Of a stretch of 53,072 bases of DNA, positions 17,496 through 52,798 are shown one piece after another. Each line of letters starts with the position of its first letter. The stretch's first letter is position 1. Under the pieces are notes generated by a model that worked only from the letters and a program-made list of their open reading frames with translations, ran no database searches and was not told the origin of the DNA. Position numbers and translations under genes: made by a program. Origin of the DNA: Candidatus Woesearchaeota archaeon. GTDB taxonomy: Archaea > Nanobdellota > Nanobdellia > Pacearchaeales > GW2011-AR1. The DNA lies in the NCBI GenBank assembly GCA_964598185.1, contig CAZRAT010000002.1, positions 3,769-56,840 on the forward strand. The letters run 5' to 3'.

Positions 17496-17933
17496 TTAGT
17501 TAAAAGAATTATTGAAAAACCCTATTAATTCTTCCTTAAATAAAAAAATGCCAATTAAAATTCCAAGCAAGATAATTAACAAAATGATCAGAAGGATTAC
17601 CATTATTCTATTGAATTTTTTTGGAGCACCATAATTTGAAACTTCTGGAGTAGTTTTTGGTTGTTGGAAATTTTTTTGGGCGCCGTAATTTGAAACTTGT
17701 TGGGTAGTTGTTAGTTGTGGAGGGGGTTTTTGTATAACTTTCTTTACTGGTTTTGCTACGGCAGTTTGTACTTGTGTAACAACTTTTTGAGCATTCATTT
17801 GCTGTAATGCTGCTGCAGCTTCTTCAATATCATTTTTTTTATAACCTGCATTATAAAAAGTCATCATTGCTTTTTTTAGAGTTTCCCCTCTAATTAATGC
17901 TAATCTTAATCCTCCAAGAATATCTTCTCTCAT
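17496..17933 (-). CDS. membrane-anchored protein with VSNYGA(Q/P)KxF repeats, hypothetical
   Basis: Two VSNYGAxKKF repeats and a C-terminal TM helix. Confidence 0.4.
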   Translation of the reverse strand: MREDILGGLRLALIRGETLKKAMMTFYNAGYKKNDIEEAAAALQQMNAQKVVTQVQTAVAKPVKKVIQKPPPQLTTTQQVSNYGAQKNFQQPKTTPEVSNYGAPKKFNRIMVILLIILLIILLGILIGIFLFKEELIGFFNNSFN

Positions 17934-24142: not shown

Positions 24143-25336
24143 ATGAATATAAAAGGTGTGTCTGCGTGCGAGATTTTGGATTCTAGAAAAGAGAAGACAA
24201 TTTTAATTTCAATTAAAACAAATGTCGGAGAGTTTTCTGCCTCTGCTCCGAATGGAAAGTCAACAGGAAAGCATGCGAAAAAGACTTATAAAAAAAATCT
24301 TGAGGGAGATATTGAAACAATAAAAAAATTTAGTGATTATTTTTCCGAAGAGGTTTTTGAGAAGTTTGATGATTTAAAAAGAACTGAAGATATTGTGGAT
24401 AGGCATATTGGGGCGAACACTCTTTTTGCATTAGAGTCTGCGATTTTGAAAGCAATTGCATCTGAACAAAAAAAACAGGTTTGGGAATTAATTAATAGCT
24501 CGGCTAAACTATCTCCAAGATTAGTTGGAAATTGTATTGGTGGAGGAGCACATTCTTCTTCAGACAAAAAACCCGATTTTCAGGAATTCTTATTGATTCC
24601 AAAATCAAAATCTGTAAAAGAATCTTTTGAAATAAATAAAAAATTAAAAAAGGGTGCTGAAAAAATTTTGGGAGAAGAAGATAAAAAGTTTAATAGTAAA
24701 AAAAATGACGAGAATGCTTGGATGACTTCTTTGAATGAAAAAGAAGTTTTGGATATTTTGAAGAAGTTAAAAACTCCCTTGGGGTTGGATGTTGCAGGTT
24801 CAAGTTTTTACAAAAGAAAAAATTACCAGTACAAAAATCCTCTGTTAAGAAGAAATGAAAAAGAGCAGTTAGGATATTTGAGTAATTTGATTAAGAATTT
24901 TAATTTGTTTTATATTGAAGATGCTTTTGAAGAAAATGATTTCGAGTCTCATGCTAAGTTGTTACGCCTCCTGGCGTACCTCTCTATACAGCGTACTGGG
25001 GCAAAGAAATTTCCTGGAATTTTAATTGTTGGTGATGATTTAATTGTAACAAATCATAAAAGACTTGAGAAAGCCATTCAAATGAAGAGCATTAATGCTG
25101 TGATTGTAAAACCAAATCAAATTGGTTCCTTGCTTGATGTGAAAAAAGTTTGTGTGTTGGCTAAGGAAAATAATATTAAAATAGTTTTTTCTCATCGTAG
25201 TGGCGAGACAGAAGAAAATATTTTGGCGGATTTAGCTTTTGGTTTTCAGGCTGATTTTTTTAAATGTGGAATTGATGGAGATGTTAGAGAAGGGAAAATA
25301 AAAAGGCTGATAGAGATTGAAAAGAGTTTGAAGTAG
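24143..25336 (+). CDS. eno: enolase (divergent)
   Basis: ACEILDSRKE, APNGKSTGKHA, IEDAFEE, VGDDLIVTN, VKPNQIGS, SHRSGETEE. Confidence 0.85.
   Translation: MNIKGVSACEILDSRKEKTILISIKTNVGEFSASAPNGKSTGKHAKKTYKKNLEGDIETIKKFSDYFSEEVFEKFDDLKRTEDIVDRHIGANTLFALESAILKAIASEQKKQVWELINSSAKLSPRLVGNCIGGGAHSSSDKKPDFQEFLLIPKSKSVKESFEINKKLKKGAEKILGEEDKKFNSKKNDENAWMTSLNEKEVLDILKKLKTPLGLDVAGSSFYKRKNYQYKNPLLRRNEKEQLGYLSNLIKNFNLFYIEDAFEENDFESHAKLLRLLAYLSIQRTGAKKFPGILIVGDDLIVTNHKRLEKAIQMKSINAVIVKPNQIGSLLDVKKVCVLAKENNIKIVFSHRSGETEENILADLAFGFQADFFKCGIDGDVREGKIKRLIEIEKSLK
24961..25003 (+). repeat. GC-rich in-frame insertion in enolase, possibly related to the 49-nt element
   Basis: GTTACGCCTCCTGGCGTACCTCTCTATACAGCGTACTGGGGCA. 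Shares the 10-mer GGCGTACCTC with the L31e copy. Contains GCGTAC twice. Confidence 0.4.
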
Positions 25337-25679: not shown

Positions 25680-26657
25680 ATGGTAGATGTTATAAAAACT
25701 ATTGCACCACAGGCGTACCCTGAAGAATCTTCCAAGAAGATTCTTACTAAGGGCAAAGAAAATGTTGAAGAAGTCTTAGATGAAGTTGTTGAGAATTTGG
25801 CACCCAACCAAGTAGGTCCAGGGGAGGGTGTACCCTCTGTAAAAGAAGATATAAATACAGAGGGCAAAGATTTAACAAAGGAAGCTGAGCAGATTTCTTT
25901 AGATACAGAACAAGAAGAATCAAAATCAATAGCAAAAGAGAAAGCTGACGCTCTTTCCTCAACAGATATTGAGAAAAAGAAAAAAGAACTTTTGAAAAAG
26001 GTTAAGAAACTTTCTGAAAAGGTTGATGTTGTTGCAACAAAGGATTTGAAAGAGCAGGTTAAGTTAAAGAAAAGGGCAGATATGCTGATTCCTCTTGAAG
26101 ATTATATTAAGACAGGTATTTATTTGGGAACAAAAGTTGTTACGCCGAACATGAAGCCGTTTGTTTACCGAAGAAGAGCAGATGGTTTGGCTATTTTTAA
26201 TACTGACTTAATTGACGAAAAATTAAAAGAAGGAATTGAATACTTATCAAAATTTGCGCCAGAAGATGTTATTCTTGCCTGTAAAAGACAAGCAGGATGG
26301 AAAGCAGCGAAGATGTTTTCTAAATATACCGGAATACAAGTATTCACAAAAAAATATCCTGCAGGAATTTTAACAAACACAGATTTACCTAACTTTTTTG
26401 AAAATGAGTTGACAATTGTTTGTGATTCGTGGCTTGACAGAAATGCTTTGAATGATACAGTAAATGTAAGGAAAAAAGTTTTGATGGTTAGCGACACAAA
26501 TAATTTTACAAAAGGAGCAGACCAAATTATTATTGGGAATAATAAATCTGAAAAAAGTTTGGGCGTGATTTTTTATTTATTAGCAAGAGGATATTGTAAG
26601 GCGAGAAAAATTGAAACAAATATCCCTGATTTGGAAATTTGGACTGGGGAAGAATAA
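25680..26657 (+). CDS. rps2: ribosomal protein S2 (uS2) with a ~125-aa K/E-rich N-terminal extension
   Basis: The core starts near LIPLEDYIKTGIYLGTK. TTTATAAA lies 25 nt upstream of the ATG at 25680. Confidence 0.9.
   Translation: MVDVIKTIAPQAYPEESSKKILTKGKENVEEVLDEVVENLAPNQVGPGEGVPSVKEDINTEGKDLTKEAEQISLDTEQEESKSIAKEKADALSSTDIEKKKKELLKKVKKLSEKVDVVATKDLKEQVKLKKRADMLIPLEDYIKTGIYLGTKVVTPNMKPFVYRRRADGLAIFNTDLIDEKLKEGIEYLSKFAPEDVILACKRQAGWKAAKMFSKYTGIQVFTKKYPAGILTNTDLPNFFENELTIVCDSWLDRNALNDTVNVRKKVLMVSDTNNFTKGADQIIIGNNKSEKSLGVIFYLLARGYCKARKIETNIPDLEIWTGEE
25800..25866 (+). repeat. in-frame palindromic element, S2 copy (49-nt core plus an 18-nt internal extra)
   Basis: GCACCCA[ACCAAGTAGGTCCAGGGG]AGGGTGTACCCTCTGTAAAAGAAGATATAAATACAGAGGGCA. 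The 9-bp inverted repeat is 25833..25841 / 25856..25864. Confidence 0.8.
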
Positions 26658-30472: not shown

Positions 30473-30588
30473 GGGCCCATAGTCCAATGGCTTAAGATAC
30501 TTCCCTTGCACGGAATAAGATGTGGAACATTATCACGTCTTTATTCCAAAGAACGGAAGAGGTCCGTGTTCGATTCACGGTGGGTCCA
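30473..30588 (+). tRNA. tRNA-Ala(UGC) with a 43-nt intron at 37/38 (30511..30553)
   Basis: Acceptor GGGCCCA/TGGGTCC with G3:U70, anticodon stem CTTCC/GGAAG, loop CTTGCA-C, T arm CCGTG-TTCGATT-CACGG. The intron forms a GGAATAAGA/TCTTTATTCC hairpin. Confidence 0.9.
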
Positions 30589-31480: not shown

Positions 31481-32850
31481 AATCCCACTAGTTTGTATTA
31501 AAATACAAACTAATGACGGAAGGTTTTCAATTTATTGAAAACTTTTAAACAAATTAATTCTTAGACATACTACTAATTTATACTGTTAGACAGATAGCTT
31601 GGTTTTGGTTATGATGAAGGACGTGGCAAGCTGCGATAAGCTTGGGGGAGCTGCATGCAAGCTTTGATCCCAAGATTTCTGAATTATTCCGAGAGGAAAA
31701 AATACGCCGGGAATTGAAACATCTTAGTACCGGCAGGAAAAGAAAACAATAGTGATGCCCTTATTAGCAGCGAGCGAAAAGGGCCCGGGGCAATCTGAAT
31801 CTTCTCTTGAAAGAGAGATAGAAATGTGGTGAGGATAAACAGCTAAGTCGACGAGTCAAAGTGAACTGGAAAGTTCCACCTTAGAAGGTGATAGTCCTGT
31901 AGACTAAATCGATACACTGTTCCTCGACGAGTAGGGCTTCCTGGATTGGAGGTCTGAATACGGCGGGATTAACCGCCAACCCTAAATAAAACCAAAGTCC
32001 GATAGCGCACTAGTACCGCGAGGGAAAGCTGAAAAGTACTCTTAACAGAGGTTGAAAAGACTTGAAATCTAACAGTTACAGTTTGTTACTGCTCTATTCA
32101 CTTTAGTGTGGAAGGGTTGTAACGTACGTTTTGAAGAACGGGCCAGGGAGTTTTTCTATATGGCGAGGCTAATCAATTATATTGAGTAACCGAAGCGAAA
32201 GCAAGTGTGAAAGCGCGCGAGTCATATGGATAAGACCTGAAGCCAGATGATCTATTTATGGGCAAGCTGAAGTCTTTCGAAAGGAGGATGGAGGGCTGAA
32301 CCGGTGTTGTGGACATGCACTCGAATGACCTGTGAATAGGGGTGAAAAGCTTATCTAATCTGGCGATGGCTGGTTCCTGCTGAAATATGCCTACGTATAG
32401 TCTTGTGTAGTTTGTTGGCGGTGTAAAGTACGGATAAATCTTGCAGGAGCTAATGCTTACGGAGATTTTTCCAACTCAGAAACTGTTAACTGCGTAGCAC
32501 AAGAATCAGGTGCAGTATGTAAGATACTGTTCCGAGAGTGGAACAACACAGACCAGAGTTAAGGTCCCAAAATTTATGCTAAGTGTATCAAAAGGCGTCT
32601 TGAACCTGAGACACCGGGGATGTAAGCTTAGAAGCAGCTATCATTTAAAGAAAGCGTAACAGCTCACCCATCGAGGTTCAGGGCCCTGAAAATGGACGGG
32701 GCTAAGCATAATACCGATACTTTGGAGGCATTCGGTTTAAAATTAATATAGGTAAAATAAAAATTTTATCTGTCGTATAAAAAAGATATTTAATACGAGT
32801 GGGATTTTGATGTTGAGGATTTTTGTTTTAACTTAGAAGTTAAGACCAAT

Positions 32851-32866
32851 GGGAAGGTTTATAAAT
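32851..32866 (+). promoter_or_regulatory. BRE/TATA promoter inside the 23S insertion (GGGAAGGTTTATAAAT)
   Basis: ~25 nt upstream of the ATG at 32887. Confidence 0.5.
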
Positions 32867-32886
32867 GTTATAGATTAAGAGAAGTT

Positions 32887-33162
32887 ATGGAAAATAAAGA
32901 TGAACTAAGTCACCTTCGTTGTTATTGGACACGACCGTTTGGACATATCTGGAAAGAAGGCCAAACTTCTTATGAAAGAAATTGTGTACTTTGCAACCAA
33001 GATAGTATTAAAGGAAATTATGATGGAGGCTGGCATTATGACTTAGATGTTCATTATGATGAACTAACAGGAGGTCAAAAAGCTAGAACCTTGACTGAAA
33101 AACATCAGGCAAGAGCACTAAGAGCTTTAGACAAAAAGAAAAAAAGACTAAAAATTTCTTGA
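32887..33162 (+). CDS. small Cys/His-containing basic protein encoded in the 23S insertion (not LAGLIDADG)
   Basis: 91 aa. HLRC...H...CVLC pattern and a basic tail KKKKRLKIS. Followed by the hairpin TTCGTCAAAAACGAA. Confidence 0.45.
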   Translation: MENKDELSHLRCYWTRPFGHIWKEGQTSYERNCVLCNQDSIKGNYDGGWHYDLDVHYDELTGGQKARTLTEKHQARALRALDKKKKRLKIS

Positions 33163-33993
33163 AGACCCTTTTAAAATAATTCTTCACACTCACTCAAATT
33201 CGTCAAAAACGAATTTTCACAAATCATATTCAATTTTTCTCAACATCAAAATCTAATATTATTAATATAGAATGTTCTAGTAAGCAGGCGTACTATTTGC
33301 GCAGAAGTTTTTTCGAGAGAAAGAGTGGAGCGAATAGTAATGAGAATCCTGGTAAGAGTAGGATGTGATTATTCTGAGAATGAATAAGGTCGAAAGGGTA
33401 AGGTTTCCTTGGCAATATCGTTTAGCTAAGGGTTAGTCAGCACCTAAGTCGTATCTTAACTGAGTACGACGATGGATATCAGGTTAATATTCCTGGACTA
33501 ATTAAATCTTATATAATATAATTTGCTTTCGGATAGGCATGCAGGTGAAAGCCTGTTTTAACGAGAAATCTGTTGAGGGTAATCCTAAGATGCAGATGAA
33601 TTTTTGAATTGCTGCTGACTCCAAGAGCCAGTGAAAAGATTATACTAATGTTTCTTGCTTGCAAGAGACGTCCCAAAAAGTTGCAAAACTTTTTGGTGTT
33701 GATTTAATTAGCTGTACCCACAACCGACACTGGTGCCCAGGCTTAGTAGGCCAAGACCTGAAAGGTAAAACCAATTAAGGGAATTCGGCAAGTTAGTCCT
33801 GTAGCTTCGGCTGAAGGGATGTCTACCTTTGTGTGCTTAGTAATATGTGTGCATTGTTAGATCTCAGTAACAAGGATGGCCCGACTGTTTACCAAAAACG
33901 TAGCCAAGTGCTAATCTGAAAAGACTTGTATACTTGGTGAGACCTGCCCAGTGGTGGTGTCTAAAACTCCTTTTCAAGGGAGCTAAGGTCCAT

Positions 33994-34028
<35 letters not shown>

Positions 34029-35021
34029 ACGTAATACCTTGTCGTATGAATTGCGACTTGCATGAATGGTTTAACGAGGTTGTCACTGTCCCTAATTGGA
34101 GCCTTCCGAACATATCTTCCGGTGAATAGACCGGAGACACCTAGTGGGAAGCGTAGACCTTGTGGAACTTTACTGCAACTTGTTGTTGTAATTTTATAAG
34201 AAATGCATAGCATAGGTAGGAGCGTCGAAGTCGTCATTTTGGTGACGATGGAGCGAACTTGTAATACTACCCATTTTTTATAGAATTGCTTACCATTTAT
34301 GGGACAGCAGCAGGCGGGCAGTTTGGCTGGGGCGGCACCCTGTCGAAAAGATATCGATAGGACCCAAAGACAAGCTCATCCAGCTTGGAAATCTGGAGTT
34401 GAGTGCGAAGGCAAAAGCTTGTCTGACTGTTTTTTGAAAAGCAAGAAAAGCAGGAGCGAAAGCTGGGCTTAGTGAACCCACGTGCTTTTTTAATAGAAGC
34501 CGTGTCTGATAGAAAAGTTACCCCAAGGATAATTGGCTTGTCTCCCCCGATAGTCCGAATTGACGGGGAGGTTTGGTACACCGCTGTCGGCTCTCCCTAT
34601 CCTGCGCGTGCAGAAGCGTGCAAGGGTGCCGGAGTTCACGTATTAAAAGGGATCGTTAGCTGGGTTAAGAACGTCGCGAGACAGTTTGTATGATATCTAC
34701 TAGGTGTGTTATTGTCTGAGTGGAACAAGTTTCCAGTACGAGAGGAACGGAACTTGGTTGCCTCTGGTGAGCAGTTGTCAATTGGCAGGCTGCATAGCTA
34801 CGCAATGTGTGGATAAGAGCTGAATGCATCTAAGCTCGAAGCCATCCGCAAAACGAGACAATTAAGGCCGTCAAAGAAGATGACGTTGATAGAGTTCTTG
34901 TGTAAGATTGAAGGTTCGCCGACAATTTCAGCATAGAACTACTAATAGCCTCCATGTATTATTCTAAGAATTACTTCTACTGCTTATTTTGTTTGATTTA
35001 ATCTTAAAGTAGTTACATCAT

Positions 35022-36105: not shown

Positions 36106-36411
36106 ATGAAAGTATATGTAGGCAATTTGCCTTGGAGTGTTGATCACGCGAAGTTGACAGAAATGTTCTCATCTTATGGTGAGATTGAAGAAGCAATCGT
36201 TATTTCAGATAAGCATTCAGGCAGGTCAAAAGGATTCGGTTTTGTAACTTTTAAAGAAGACGAGAGTGCAAAGAAAGCAATTTCTGAAATGAATGAAAAA
36301 GAAATTGAAGGAAGAAATCTTAAGGTTAATGAAGCACAACCATTTGACCCAGATAAAAAACCACAAAGACCAAGAAGTAACAATAACTTTAGTCGTGAAA
36401 GAAGATTCTAA
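36106..36411 (+). CDS. RRM-domain RNA-binding protein
   Basis: RNP-2 VYVGNL and RNP-1 KGFGFVTF. A clear AGGAGG Shine-Dalgarno sits 8 nt upstream, unlike its leaderless neighbours. Confidence 0.85.
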   Translation: MKVYVGNLPWSVDHAKLTEMFSSYGEIEEAIVISDKHSGRSKGFGFVTFKEDESAKKAISEMNEKEIEGRNLKVNEAQPFDPDKKPQRPRSNNNFSRERRF

Positions 36412-36549
36412 ATTAACCTTCTTCGTTTTCTAAGGAAAACGTCGTAAGGAGATTCTAAATTAACCTTCTTCGTTTTCTAAGGAAAACGTCGTAAGGAGAT
36501 TCTAAATTAACCTTCTTCGTTTTCTAAGGAAAACGTCGTAAGGAGATTT
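36404..36549 (+). repeat. 3 x 47-bp perfect tandem repeat (plus a 5-nt partial), each unit carrying a hairpin
   Basis: Unit GATTCTAAATTAACCTTCTTCGTTTTCTAAGGAAAACGTCGTAAGGA. The first unit includes the RRM gene stop codon. Hairpin CGTTTTC-TAAG-GAAAACG with an outer CCTT/AAGG. Confidence 0.9.
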
Positions 36550-42383: not shown

Positions 42384-42775
42384 TGTAAGTCAGGTAGTTA
42401 ACTTCGGGACTTTGATATTAGATTATCAAGAAGTCAAGATATGATTTCTAAGCCCTGCGGAAGGTCCGGACACTATAAAGACTGTCAGGGAAATCCTGGT
42501 TGCTGTGAAGCAAAGCTCTGTTACAGAAACGCCACAGCCTTATCATGGCAAGAGGGAAACCTCAAGCCGTCGTCCGAAATTTCAGTTTCGAACGAGAGTA
42601 ATGAACCTTGCGGGGAACGTCGACGATAAGGATTTGATGAAACGGGCATCTCGGTCAGTGCAAGTCTAAGACGCATAGTTGAATGTTAACACGTTTGGTC
42701 TGGCCCCTTTTTGGGGCATGACATCCTAAAGGAGGCCTCAGCGAACGACAGAATCTGGCCTATTCCTGACTTACA
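42384..42775 (+). ncRNA. rnpB: RNase P RNA
   Basis: P1 TGTAAGTCAGG / CCTGACTTACA. GCGGAAGGTCCGGACAC (CR-I-like), GTTACAGAAACGCCACAGCC, AGAGGGAAACC, GACAGAATCTGGCCTAT (CR-V-like). GC-rich island. Confidence 0.8.
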
Positions 42776-49760: not shown

Positions 49761-50363
49761 ATGGCAAAAAAAATAGAACCTAAAACAGAAAAAATTGAAA
49801 GAGAATATATTATCCCGCTTAGATATAAAGGGAGGGCTGTTCCGCGTTATAAAAAAACTCCAAAGGCTATTAAGACAATTAAAGAGTTTTTAGCAAAACA
49901 TATGAAAATTAAAAATCGGGATTTGAAAAAAATTAAGATTGATAAATATTTGAATGAGCAGATGTGGTTCAGGGGAATTAAAAAGCCGCCTGTGAAAATT
50001 AAAGTTAAGGCTGTTAAGGAAAAAGGTGTTGTTAAGGTTGAACTTGTAGATTATTCTGATAAATTAAAGTTTAAAAAATTAAGAGAAGAGAAAAAAGAAA
50101 AAGCGGCTGAAGAAGTTGGGAAGAAGAAAATAGCACCCAAGGGCGTACCTCCTGTAGAAAGAGATTTAAATACAGAGGGCAAAAAACTTGCTGAAGAAGA
50201 AATAAATACAGAAGGCAAGAAAAAGATTGAGTCGGCAAAAATAAAAGCTGGTGCAGAGGTTATGAAACAAATTGAAAAATCAGCAGCTAAAGAATTAAAG
50301 CAAAGTGTTGGTGGGAAGAAAAAGCAAAAGACTCAGCCTGTTAGAAAAGCTTTGGCGAAGTAA
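49761..50363 (+). CDS. rpl31e: ribosomal protein L31e with a ~100-aa K/E-rich C-terminal extension
   Basis: EREYIIPLRY...PRYKKTPKAIKTIKEFLAKHMK...IDKYLNEQMWFRGIKKPPVKIKVKA. Confidence 0.8.
   Translation: MAKKIEPKTEKIEREYIIPLRYKGRAVPRYKKTPKAIKTIKEFLAKHMKIKNRDLKKIKIDKYLNEQMWFRGIKKPPVKIKVKAVKEKGVVKVELVDYSDKLKFKKLREEKKEKAAEEVGKKKIAPKGVPPVERDLNTEGKKLAEEEINTEGKKKIESAKIKAGAEVMKQIEKSAAKELKQSVGGKKKQKTQPVRKALAK
50133..50181 (+). repeat. in-frame palindromic element, L31e copy (a partial right-half copy follows at 50202..50217)
   Basis: GCACCCAAGGGCGTACCTCCTGTAGAAAGAGATTTAAATACAGAGGGCA, 43/49 identical to the cbf5 copy. The partial copy reads ATAAATACAGAAGGCA. Confidence 0.8.
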
Positions 50364-51823: not shown

Positions 51824-52798
51824 ATGAACCTTCAAAGACTAAAACAAGAAAAAAGCATAAAAGAACTTTTAGAGTTTGGAATTATAAATATTGATAAGTC
51901 TTCTGGACCGACGAGTTTTAATGTTTCTGATTTTGTGAGAAAAAGTTTGGGTTTAAGAAAAACTTCTCATTTTGGAACACTTGACCCAAAAGTTACAGGA
52001 GTTTTGCCTATTGCCTTGAATCGTGGTTGCAAACTTACAGGATATTTTTTAGGAGAAGATAAAGAATATGTTGGAATAATGAGAATCCATGATGAGGTTG
52101 AGTTAAAAAAAATTAAAGAAGTTATTAAAAAGAAATTTACTGGGGTGATAAAACAAACTCCGCCTGTAAAATCTCGTGTGAAAAGACAGGAGCGTGAAAG
52201 AGAAGTTAAAGCATTTGAATTAATTGAGAGGGGCGAGGCAAAGCCTCTAACTACTTCGTCCAAGCTTGGCCAAAGTAAGGAAGGAAAGAATATTTTGTTT
52301 AGGGCAGAAGTTCAGGGCGGGACTTATATTAGAAAATTAATTGATGATTTAGGAAAAGAGTTGGGGGTTGGGGCGCATATGTTAGAATTGCGGAGAGTTA
52401 GGGCAGGAATTTTTAAAGAGAATGATAAGGAATATCCTAGTGTAAATTTGTATGATTTTGAAAAGGCTGTTAATGCGTACTTCGCACCCAAGGGTGTACC
52501 CTCTGTAGATGGAGATATAAATACAGAGGGCAGAAATGATAAATTGTTAAGAGATATGATAATTCCTGGGGAAATTGTTTCTGAACTGCATTCTGTTGTT
52601 AAAATAAAAAAGGACAATTTAAAAGCTATTTTCACAGGCAAACCGATTCAAGAAAAAGATTTAGTAAAAAAACCAGATGTTAAAAAAGATGAGACAATTG
52701 TTGTTTTTTGTGAAAATAAATTTGTTGGAATTTACAAAACAATTTTAAGTGAGCATGTTTTTGCAAAGTCTGAGTTTGTTATACAACCTTTGGCATAA
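51824..52798 (+). CDS. cbf5: tRNA/rRNA pseudouridine synthase Cbf5 (TruB family, with PUA domain)
   Basis: NIDKSSGPTS, HFGTLDPKVTGVLPI (catalytic Asp), GTYIRKLIDDLG, GAHMLELRRVRAG. Confidence 0.9.
   Translation: MNLQRLKQEKSIKELLEFGIINIDKSSGPTSFNVSDFVRKSLGLRKTSHFGTLDPKVTGVLPIALNRGCKLTGYFLGEDKEYVGIMRIHDEVELKKIKEVIKKKFTGVIKQTPPVKSRVKRQEREREVKAFELIERGEAKPLTTSSKLGQSKEGKNILFRAEVQGGTYIRKLIDDLGKELGVGAHMLELRRVRAGIFKENDKEYPSVNLYDFEKAVNAYFAPKGVPSVDGDINTEGRNDKLLRDMIIPGEIVSELHSVVKIKKDNLKAIFTGKPIQEKDLVKKPDVKKDETIVVFCENKFVGIYKTILSEHVFAKSEFVIQPLA
52484..52532 (+). repeat. in-frame palindromic element, cbf5 copy
   Basis: GCACCCAAGGGTGTACCCTCTGTAGATGGAGATATAAATACAGAGGGCA with a perfect 9-bp inverted repeat CCCTCTGTA / TACAGAGGG. 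Confidence 0.8.

Follow-up and report, generated by a model that had tools for sequence, protein, structure and literature searches.

A 48-nt double-hairpin repeat carried in frame by conserved genes of DPANN archaea belongs to a larger superfamily of GC-rich mini-elements

Introduction

Palindromic repeats of an archaeon were reportedly described by Suyama, Lathe and Bork in 2005 as the MJRE repeats of Methanocaldococcus jannaschii, 3 of which, out of 141, are said to lie in genes and the rest to be extragenic. As a kind, palindromic repeats that stand in frame within genes are known from Rickettsia, Wolbachia and enterobacteria (PMC2229807). RPE-1 and related Rickettsia palindromic elements (RPEs; Ogata et al. 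2000, 2002) are considered here to the extent that they are summarised in PMC10969869 and PMC2229807. A 2024 review of MITEs, which are transposable elements of the miniature inverted-repeat kind, gives archaeal examples only from Sulfolobus, Halobacterium, Haloquadratum, Desulfurococcus and a few more. In this study, we analysed a 53,072-nt stretch of DNA (the window) from a Candidatus Woesearchaeota archaeon (assembly GCA_964598185.1, contig CAZRAT010000002.1, positions 3,769 to 56,840) and found that it carries three copies of one DNA repeat, located in the cbf5, L31e and S2 genes. The window is archaeal, as it comprises an operon of small-subunit (SSU) rRNA, tRNA and large-subunit (LSU) rRNA as well as an archaeal RNase P RNA (Rfam). 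A first-pass annotation of this stretch, made from the letters alone, had pointed out the repeat and knew of no equivalent in DPANN archaea; likewise, no description of such elements was found in the searchable full-text literature on DPANN, Pacearchaeota, Woesearchaeota or archaea.

Results

All three copies are on the + strand, sense and in frame with their host genes, as the first-pass annotation had stated. The intact copy, which defines what we refer to as family A, is a 48-nt element (CACCC..GGGCA; 52485..52532, +; covariance model, 78.4 bits) in cbf5 (51824..52798, +; Pfam TruB_N/TruB_C_2), where it lies between the catalytic and PUA domains and encodes (A)PKGVPSVDGDINTEG(R). A degenerate copy (50134..50181, +; 62.7 bits) is found in the C-terminal extension of ribosomal protein L31e (49761..50363, +; Pfam), and the third copy (25801..25866, +; 58.6 bits) in the long N-terminal extension of ribosomal protein S2 (25680..26657, +; Pfam). 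The earlier identity counts against a 49-mer of cbf5 were reproduced, being 43/49 for L31e (then placed at 50133..50181; 6 mismatches) and 46/49 for S2 (then 25800..25866) after removal of an 18-nt block. The GC content is 49% for the cbf5 49-mer and 32% for the window, in line with the ~50% and ~30% previously put forward, and 0/100 dinucleotide-preserving shuffles gave a match. The exact window proteins including the element were called on 47 (Cbf5), 53 (S2) and 49 (L31e) contigs from NCBI, JGI, ENA and Logan, which excludes the assembly chimeras that had been raised as a possibility.

The repeat had been described as a 49-nt unit with one palindrome. The repeat is real, but its unit is 48 nt long and exhibits two adjacent hairpins (CACCCAAGGGTGTACCCTCTGTA-N14-TACAGAGGGCA). 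The first hairpin is short, with CACC/GGTG closing CAAG, whereas the second has a 9-bp stem and a 14-nt loop, the 3' half of which, GAT-N-TAAA, is nearly invariant. In the cbf5 copy, helix 1 pairs 52485-52488 with 52493-52496 and helix 2 pairs 52499-52507 with 52522-52530 (+), and folding yields -22.1 kcal/mol (z = -4.05). As had been noted for each copy, 9-bp arms form an inverted repeat around a 14-nt spacer, but in L31e the copy is a degenerate one and shows three defects in its stems (one in helix 1 and two in helix 2; z = -1.3). The 3' half of the L31e copy is partially duplicated in tandem over 36 nt (50182..50217, +; repeat family D1, spacing 36), which yields a second ..INTEGK. As for terminal inverted repeats (TIRs), the 5' end reads CACCCAAGGG and the 3' end, when reverse-complemented, TGCCCTCTGT, with only CCC common to both; the palindromy of the element is due to its two internal hairpins. 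No match to the element was found in Rfam 15, even at a permissive E-value (best score 15.9 bits against a gathering score of 70). A K-turn, a box C/D-like element, a CRISPR repeat, a diversity-generating retroelement target and an intein remnant were considered as identities of the element and rejected, given its two plain hairpins, its open frames with lengths in multiples of three and the absence of their defining motifs.

The 18-nt block of the S2 copy, CCAAGTAGGTCCAGGGGA (25808-25825, +), is located inside the helix-1 loop and leaves both helices intact, the whole copy folding at -26.3 kcal/mol (z = -3.4). It had been noted as an extra with a length that is a multiple of three, which it is; it is also a recurring unit in its own right. 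The block, CCAAGTAGGTCyrrrGA, is found again in family-A copies of other genomes (L004 5374-5441, twice; L114 2286-2302) and seems to be a still smaller repeated unit.

Relatives of family A were sought in one genome per GTDB species with the fully back-translated peptide pattern GGNGTNCCNNCNGTN7GANNTNAAYACNGARGG, which allows any synonymous codon. Matches were found on 14 contigs of 8 metagenome-assembled genomes (MAGs), which bear the label Pacearchaeota, Woesearchaeota, Nanoarchaeota or 'archaeon', and in addition on one contig with an unverified Patescibacteria label. All 17 matches have near-identical nucleotides (CACCCAAGGGTGTACCCTCTGT..), including the unconstrained upstream CACCCAAG, and all are in frame and sense in open reading frames (ORFs). 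As any synonymous codon was permitted and only near-identical nucleotides were returned, the conservation is at the nucleotide level. The copy on the last-mentioned contig (L009 3383-3430; JAHJTR010000176.1, binned 'Patescibacteria group bacterium') is at the C-terminus of a truncated 47-aa ORF that follows a nucleotidyltransferase gene, and reflects either mis-binning or an inter-domain occurrence.

A scan of metagenomes with the pattern CACCCAAGGGTGTACCC-N20-50-GGGCA returned 112 stretches and revealed a superfamily, whose members have a common 5' module and a GGGCA end and differ in their internal stem-loops. In each element, the conserved 5' module CACCC-AA-GGGTG-TA-CCC is followed by a stem-loop that differs between families and by the end TAC-nnR-GGGCA, the total length being 42-54 nt. 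Besides family A (48 nt), it comprises family B (51 nt; PKGVPRDISKEMSTRGK), a 54-nt family and families of 49-53 nt with AT-rich stems. Family A thus belongs to a larger superfamily, which also includes intergenic members and members that are read in other frames. Both scans demanded intact sequence; among second copies in the fetched loci, which were not selected in this way, about half differ from the 16-nt module at 1-3 positions. Hosts confirmed by Pfam are S2, L31e, Cbf5, a tRNA-binding-domain protein, Kae1/TsaD, a TrxR-like protein, an Elp3-like radical SAM protein, L22, L24, L32e, PolD DP2, a helicase and a Toprim protein; DnaG is also among the hosts, as are large surface proteins and small membrane proteins. 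The earlier wording of 'three unrelated housekeeping genes' holds in that the hosts are non-homologous, but the element is not restricted to housekeeping genes. A census of host proteins by protein search with a concatenated peptide query gave 3 weak matches only. Four loci (L011, L003, L014 and L073) carry further in-frame GC-rich inserts with other recurring peptides (..QAPKDF.KKSLQGA.., ..GCTPPHYVPSARTCK..), which suggests that many more element families exist in these genomes.

The stems are conserved while the peptide changes. In 25 distinct family-A copies, 98.5% of cells are paired and both sides have changed at 5/13 pairs; none of 500 shuffles reached any of the five pairing measures, and pairing falls to 25-58% in slid registers of the stem. 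Examples of compensatory change are GTA/TAC to ATG/CAT, TTG/CAA or GTG/CAC, and TCT/AGA to TCG/CGA, TCA/TGA or TTT/AAA. The stems of family B are 97.9% paired, with 26 doubly changed cells. These variants alter the encoded residues (SM..NIEG, SL..NKEG, FV..NTKG; V/T to M/I or L/K), and in the loop codon it is the third position that is fixed and the first that varies (ATA/GTA/TTA). Because the pattern used to scan the metagenomes itself prescribed the bases of helix 1 and the three outermost pairs of helix 2, helix 1 is supported indirectly, by a single variant with a compensatory change (CACCT-AA-AGGTG), by the place of the 18-nt block in its loop and, in a candidate element in enolase described below, by a different 5-bp helix at the same position. 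The constraint, or the common ancestry, is thus at the level of the nucleic acid, not of a peptide motif. The view of the first-pass annotation that this is a DNA-level repeat, as opposed to convergent protein evolution, is supported both by the back-translated scan and by the peptide-altering compensatory changes.

With regard to orthologous sites, the 120 closest Cbf5 homologues, nearly all of Pacearchaeota type, were compared. Of these, 101 are without a recognised element (median 294 aa, compared with 324 aa in the window) and 7 have family A at the site. The empty site reads TAT AAA GAA GGC AAT and the filled site TAC TTC G[48 nt]AG GGT AAT, a net gain of 48 nt. The first-pass annotation gave the Pyrococcus-type protein as ~13-16 aa shorter in the linker before the PUA domain; relative to close orthologues, the insertion adds exactly 16 codons. 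In a neighbour-joining tree the seven family-A alleles are interleaved with empty alleles, a result from 286 columns that is not robust. One orthologue has a different element at the family-A site, three have other elements nested within family A (nesting was seen in P0002, P0005, P0006 and L004), and in one (P0017) only a TEGK remnant is left. The refuting case named by the first-pass annotation, an ancestral protein motif kept in distant orthologues with unrelated codons, does not hold, as orthologues are mostly without the segment.

A second in-frame insertion is present in cbf5. Family D, a GC-rich double hairpin of unrelated sequence (52229..52279, +; residues ~136-152; a gap relative to Cbf5 of the PDB), is an insert 'RGEAKPLTTSSKLGQSKE' that most orthologues lack; its two small palindromes are GAGGC-AAA-GCCTC and CCAAGCTTGG. 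The site at residues 136-152 is occupied by one of two GC-rich double-hairpin families (D, or D' 'EMQGQEPLRTSPKRGQS') or is empty.

Family A is lacking in 117/120 S2 homologues and is found only in the window and in two homologues (P0125/P0126), which are 88% identical to that of the window and are without the 18-nt block. Close relatives of the window S2 are empty or carry a B/C-type element or decayed copies (APKGVLSGKEDVNPESK; EPNQVGLKEGVPSIDESEGK). Of 150 L31e representatives, family A occurs in that of the window alone, and family B in a single other. Decayed copies are those of the window L31e, P0136 and P0142. When the 120-nt flanks of 121 copies were joined and run against the fetched loci, 49 junction-spanning matches were obtained, which are element-free orthologues for at least 20 distinct insertions; the clear filled-versus-empty cases have a net difference of +48 nt (family A), +51 nt (family B) and +54 nt (the '53-nt' class). 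Sequence comparison at these sites shows that the element is gained and lost over evolutionary time. No duplicated flank was seen in filled/empty pairs, in which the orthologues are 70-84% identical and target-site duplications (TSDs) of 1-3 nt (CA, GCA) could escape notice.

Genic location, frame and strand were determined for 119 non-redundant superfamily copies. The majority (76/119) are in a spanning ORF in the PKGVP frame and 17 in another sense frame; 16 best fit an antisense ORF, several of them tying with an equally open sense frame, and 10 are in no ORF. Most intergenic and other-frame copies have a length that is not a multiple of three. Depending on the family, the module is read as PKGVP, TQGCTP or HPRVYP, that is in all three sense frames, which fits filtering by tolerance of the encoded peptide. 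The ~32 family-A copies are all inside ORFs, all sense and all in one frame. The 48-nt class is stop-free in 5/6 frames, and the frame in use is hydrophilic (mean hydropathy -0.82), the antisense frames ranging from +0.1 to +0.9. Every genic copy of families A and B has an open frame and a length that is a multiple of three, and the secondary indels (18 nt, nested inserts) are also multiples of three.

The flanks of the element are R before the unit (G 75%, A 17%) and A-R-R after it, and the filled/empty comparisons are consistent with a putative insertion into R^AR, by which a Glu or Lys codon is split. Such an insertion would give an Ala or Thr (GCA/ACA) first codon and a Lys (AAR) after ..GGC, and the (A/T)P...GK ends of the peptide follow from the consensus of the flanks, R|element|AR. 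Of the G^ARR sites in the window genes, 44% fall at codon position 1 in the sense direction (for G^AAG the share is 60%) and 23% are antisense. A target preference could bias insertions to the observed phase and strand but cannot alone give 32/32; peptide selection or a strand-specific mechanism must add to it. Replication-strand bias was considered as a cause of the sense orientation and judged insufficient, as gene-strand bias in archaea is modest.

The effect on the host protein was assessed with an AlphaFold model of the window Cbf5 (predicted local distance difference test, pLDDT, 81; predicted template modelling score, pTM, 0.76), which matches the Pyrococcus H/ACA Cbf5 structures with a template modelling (TM) score of ~0.7. 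Family A corresponds to residues 221-237, between helices 209-220 and 235-245 (pLDDT ~65 for residues 221-240), and the rest of the fold is intact in the model despite the insert. The family-D insert (136-152) is a loop between two strands with pLDDT <50. In three orthologous TrxR-like hosts (L008, L090 and L091), the element appears near the same point, between ..L(E/D)xV/I.. and ..(V/L)DGLF...

Two further stretches of the window resemble the superfamily. A degenerate copy of family B/C type is located in the S2 N-terminus (25705..25755, +; covariance model, 12.3 bits, E = 0.16); it exhibits a degenerate 5' module CACCACAGGCGTACCC, a 10-bp stem, the end TACTAAGGGCA and the peptide APQAYPEESSKKILTKG, folds at -18.4 kcal/mol (z = -3.2) and is missing from the S2 homologue P0131, which has the same MVDVIK start. 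The enolase candidate (24965..25003, +; a weak 8.9 bits) is GC-rich, with a hairpin ACGCC-TCCT-GGCGT, the end TACTGGGGCA and an architecture like that of the superfamily; its peptide ..AYLSIQRTGAK is similar to an insert AYPSIRRTGAK in L011.

Other features of the window were recorded alongside. The RNase P RNA (42387-42772) is ~95 nt above the Rfam archaeal model, with a ~42-nt insertion near the 5' end and, in the 3' region, a ~53-nt GC-rich hairpin-like insertion (..GGCCCCUUUUUGGGGCA..) without the CACCCAAGGGTG module. RPEs occur in the RNase P RNA of Rickettsia. The LSU rRNA (31566-34963) is 3398 nt long compared with a 2987-nt model, an excess of ~400 nt, and a 116-nt tRNA between SSU and LSU (30473-30588; Rfam) was not called by ARAGORN and presumably contains an intron. 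No copies of the element were found in the rRNA operon with the covariance model and the module pattern. A near-perfect tandem repeat with a 47-nt unit (36399-36548; 3.2 copies, 99% identity) overlaps the 3' end of the ORF 36106-36411, where it begins, and extends beyond it, and a 54-nt tandem duplication (17614-17718; 1.9 copies, 84% identity) is found within the minus-strand ORF 17496-17933.

Discussion

The reading that we favour, with a probability of roughly 0.7, is that family A is a non-autonomous mobile or selfish mini-element which is transcribed and translated as a hydrophilic surface loop, and which is one family of a DPANN superfamily. This reading draws on the observed repeat identity, structure conservation, in-frame genic location, presence and absence at orthologous sites, nesting and decay. 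From these we infer a mobility mechanism, a target preference and translation of the element. Short (42-54 nt) GC-rich repeat elements would populate the AT-rich genomes of Pacearchaeota/Woesearchaeota-type DPANN archaea, and their copies would spread to new sites at the nucleic-acid level, with an apparent preference for R^AR, a purine-rich position at which a Glu/Lys codon is split. The 5' module and the maintained hairpin may be the recognition feature of the mobilising or copying machinery. Three properties could allow copies to persist in genes: a length divisible by three, a GC-richness that avoids stop codons, and a frame that encodes a hydrophilic, Gly/Pro-rich loop of 16-18 residues that would be tolerated in surface loops and terminal extensions. 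The element would stay in the mRNA and be translated, in which case tryptic peptides such as GVPSVDGDINTEGR are expected from the insert.

Several observations weigh against this reading. The conservation among the scan matches is partly by construction, given that the scans had demanded intact sequence. All of the ~32 family-A copies are in one sense frame, though five of the six frames are stop-free and target preference alone gives 44-60%. Intergenic copies make up only ~8% of the superfamily, which is low for a purely selfish element. All Cbf5 members with at least 90% identity that cover the region carry the element, and in the 90%-identity clusters of Cbf5, S2 and L31e every site-covering member is filled, so that these clusters yield neither a near-isogenic presence/absence polymorphism nor an exact boundary or TSD; as all these Cbf5 relatives are filled, recent activity is not established. 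Lineages with 84% identity between their genes (74% at synonymous third positions) have a cbf5 copy that agrees at 48/48 positions; by our own arithmetic, 0.84^48 is ~2e-4, which could mean selection on the nucleotide sequence and not neutrality. No TIR, TSD, parent insertion sequence (IS) or transposase was found, the MAGs not having been searched systematically for transposases, and the superfamily pattern gave 0 matches in the viral contigs of IMG/VR. The single sense frame, the ~8% of intergenic copies and the 48/48 identity in Cbf5 remain incompletely explained, and leave room for selection on an mRNA hairpin, gene conversion or recurrent site-specific insertion.

A bolder interpretation, which we regard as improbable yet worth naming, is that the superfamily represents a distinct class of codon-phase-targeting, translation-compatible mobile element, possibly the smallest known, and/or a domesticated sense-strand mRNA hairpin tag in DPANN translation genes. 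Within transcribed genes, its insertion would be strand-specific and would split Glu/Lys codons, perhaps via an RNA or single-stranded DNA hairpin intermediate recognised through the invariant CACCCAAGGGTGTACCC module. Either version would account for the exclusive sense orientation and single frame, the few intergenic copies and a conservation above that of the host gene, for which selfish DNA combined with selection is only a partial explanation. Another unlikely explanation is that of a selected cis-acting RNA, a double hairpin in the sense mRNA that is bound by a protein or small RNA, or slows ribosomes or exonucleases, and that marks a set of mRNAs, mostly related to translation, so that they are regulated, stabilised or localised in common, the peptide being a by-product. 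The compensatory changes that keep the stem, together with the few G-U pairs tolerated on the sense strand, are in its favour, as are the strictly sense orientation of family A despite open antisense frames, the loop GAU-N-UAAA being kept even where the amino acid changes (I/V/L), the better conservation of the element than of the surrounding gene, and the many hosts that are ribosomal proteins or RNA-modification enzymes. This host bias, however, may be trivial, DPANN genomes consisting largely of information-processing genes, and the element is hosted by surface proteins, enolase, TrxR and PolD as well. A selected RNA is also at odds with the patchy distribution among close orthologues of every host examined, with the decayed copies in the window L31e, P0136 and P0142, with the interchange of different families at one site and with the lack of an Rfam match. 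Spread by homologous or microhomology-mediated recombination and gene conversion, with hairpins as hot spots of recombination or slippage and no dedicated transposition machinery, has a somewhat smaller chance of being correct. It would fit the lack of a detected TIR, TSD or transposase, the identical junctions (TAC TTC G|..|AG GGT) in all filled Cbf5 alleles despite their scatter in the tree, the identity of the element between diverged genes, and the partial tandem duplication and recurring 18-nt sub-units within copies. Nevertheless, the neighbour-joining tree behind that scatter, built on 286 columns, is not robust, gene conversion cannot give rise to first insertions in non-homologous genes, and more than 20 independent sites in unrelated genes require an insertion step.

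The remaining explanations are far less probable. A functional peptide module, in which the short linear motif PKGVPSVxxDINTEGK was recruited repeatedly as a partner binder or flexible linker, agrees with a frame that is always open and always the same, with a hydrophilic, Gly- and Pro-rich composition, and with a location in a lower-confidence inter-helix segment and in terminal extensions. We consider it very unlikely, as synonymous positions are invariant, stem-compensating changes alter residues (SM..NIEG, SL..NKEG, FV..NTKG), other families read the same DNA module in three frames and most orthologues are without it. Hardly more credible is an untranslated element, either excised in an intron-like manner by the archaeal splicing endonuclease or bypassed by the ribosome as in T4 gene 60 and mitochondrial byp. 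In favour of such an element, cbf5 is known in Crenarchaeota as the host of an archaeal mRNA intron. Byp elements (Lang et al. 2014) are reportedly GC-rich hairpin inserts in AT-rich coding sequence, as the present element is. For a segment that is removed or bypassed, however, neither an open frame nor a length in multiples of three would be needed. An archaeal bulge-helix-bulge intron was rejected because the minimum free energy and consensus structures are two plain, uninterrupted hairpins, without two 3-nt bulges around a 4-bp helix. Programmed translational bypass was likewise rejected: the flanking codons vary between sites and do not match as take-off and landing codons, no stop follows the take-off site, and genic A and B copies are open and multiples of three in length. 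An assembly or binning artefact, through chimeric reads or a contaminating repeat, has nothing in its favour and is already refuted by independent assemblies, the same proteins with the insert being present on 47-53 independently assembled contigs and the element in >100 other assemblies.

Should the mobile mini-element reading be correct, selfish DNA inside protein-coding genes would extend from Rickettsia-type bacteria and organelles to DPANN archaea, and a 48-nt element could remodel essential conserved proteins (ribosomal proteins, Cbf5, Kae1, Elp3, PolD, DnaG) under strong genome reduction. The element would account for part of the variation in DPANN protein length and for odd terminal extensions, would be a source of alignment and orthology noise in the phylogenomics of these lineages, and would mark naturally permissive insertion sites in conserved enzymes. 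The invariant 17-nt module would provide a sequence handle for finding the enzyme that moves such mini-elements.

Comparison with known systems

Like the present element, the MJRE repeats are said to be archaeal and palindromic and to have a few copies in coding regions without disruption; they are reportedly longer, confined to one genome and overwhelmingly extragenic, whereas in-frame genic copies are the rule here, across several DPANN orders. The likeness to RPEs proposed by the first-pass annotation is borne out, in-frame insertion with preservation of the frame being observed in many unrelated ORFs. As far as the summaries in PMC10969869 and PMC2229807 go, RPEs share with family A a repeated, palindromic or hairpin-forming DNA that is found in frame within numerous conserved but unrelated genes of a genome both reduced and AT-rich, an extra translated peptide (translation being predicted in our case) that is compatible with the fold and patchy among orthologues, and the existence of several families. 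According to the same summaries, RPEs are stem-loops of 105-150 bp with TIRs of ~12 bp, unlike the 48-nt element, which is three times shorter and has two short hairpins without TIRs, and they are common intergenically and also occur in RNA genes, whereas family A is found only in ORFs, sense and in one frame. The hosts also differ, being an alphaproteobacterium and DPANN archaea, and the two are unrelated in sequence, a distinction drawn from size and host and not from direct alignment; an element of 48 nt on DPANN archaeal contigs is outside the RPE sequence families of Rickettsia and Wolbachia (105-150 bp).

Repetitive extragenic palindromic (REP) sequences and MITEs are likewise short, repeated, stem-loop-forming, of non-coding size and non-autonomous (PMC12306157, PMC10969869). 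In contrast to REPs, which are extragenic by definition (PMC12306157), the element is intragenic, with ~90% of the superfamily and 100% of family A inside ORFs. MITEs have TIRs, TSDs and a related IS (PMC10969869), none of which was found for the element in comparisons where TSDs of 1-3 nt could escape notice. The yeast GC42 clusters (PMC4478555) resemble it as GC-rich hairpins of ~40-50 nt in an AT-rich genome that are constrained in their hairpin, sporadic, and prone to merging and nesting. They differ in being organellar, mostly intergenic and associated with an AG target duplication, whereas the DPANN elements are mostly intragenic and in frame with no visible duplication. The defining properties of GC clusters and double-hairpin elements (DHEs), namely GC-richness in an AT-rich genome, constrained hairpins and sporadic distribution, are all exhibited by the element, a correspondence in kind only and not in sequence homology. 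As regards layout, to the extent that PMC4478555 cites Paquin et al. (2000), the two-hairpin organisation of family A is also that of the DHEs of Allomyces.

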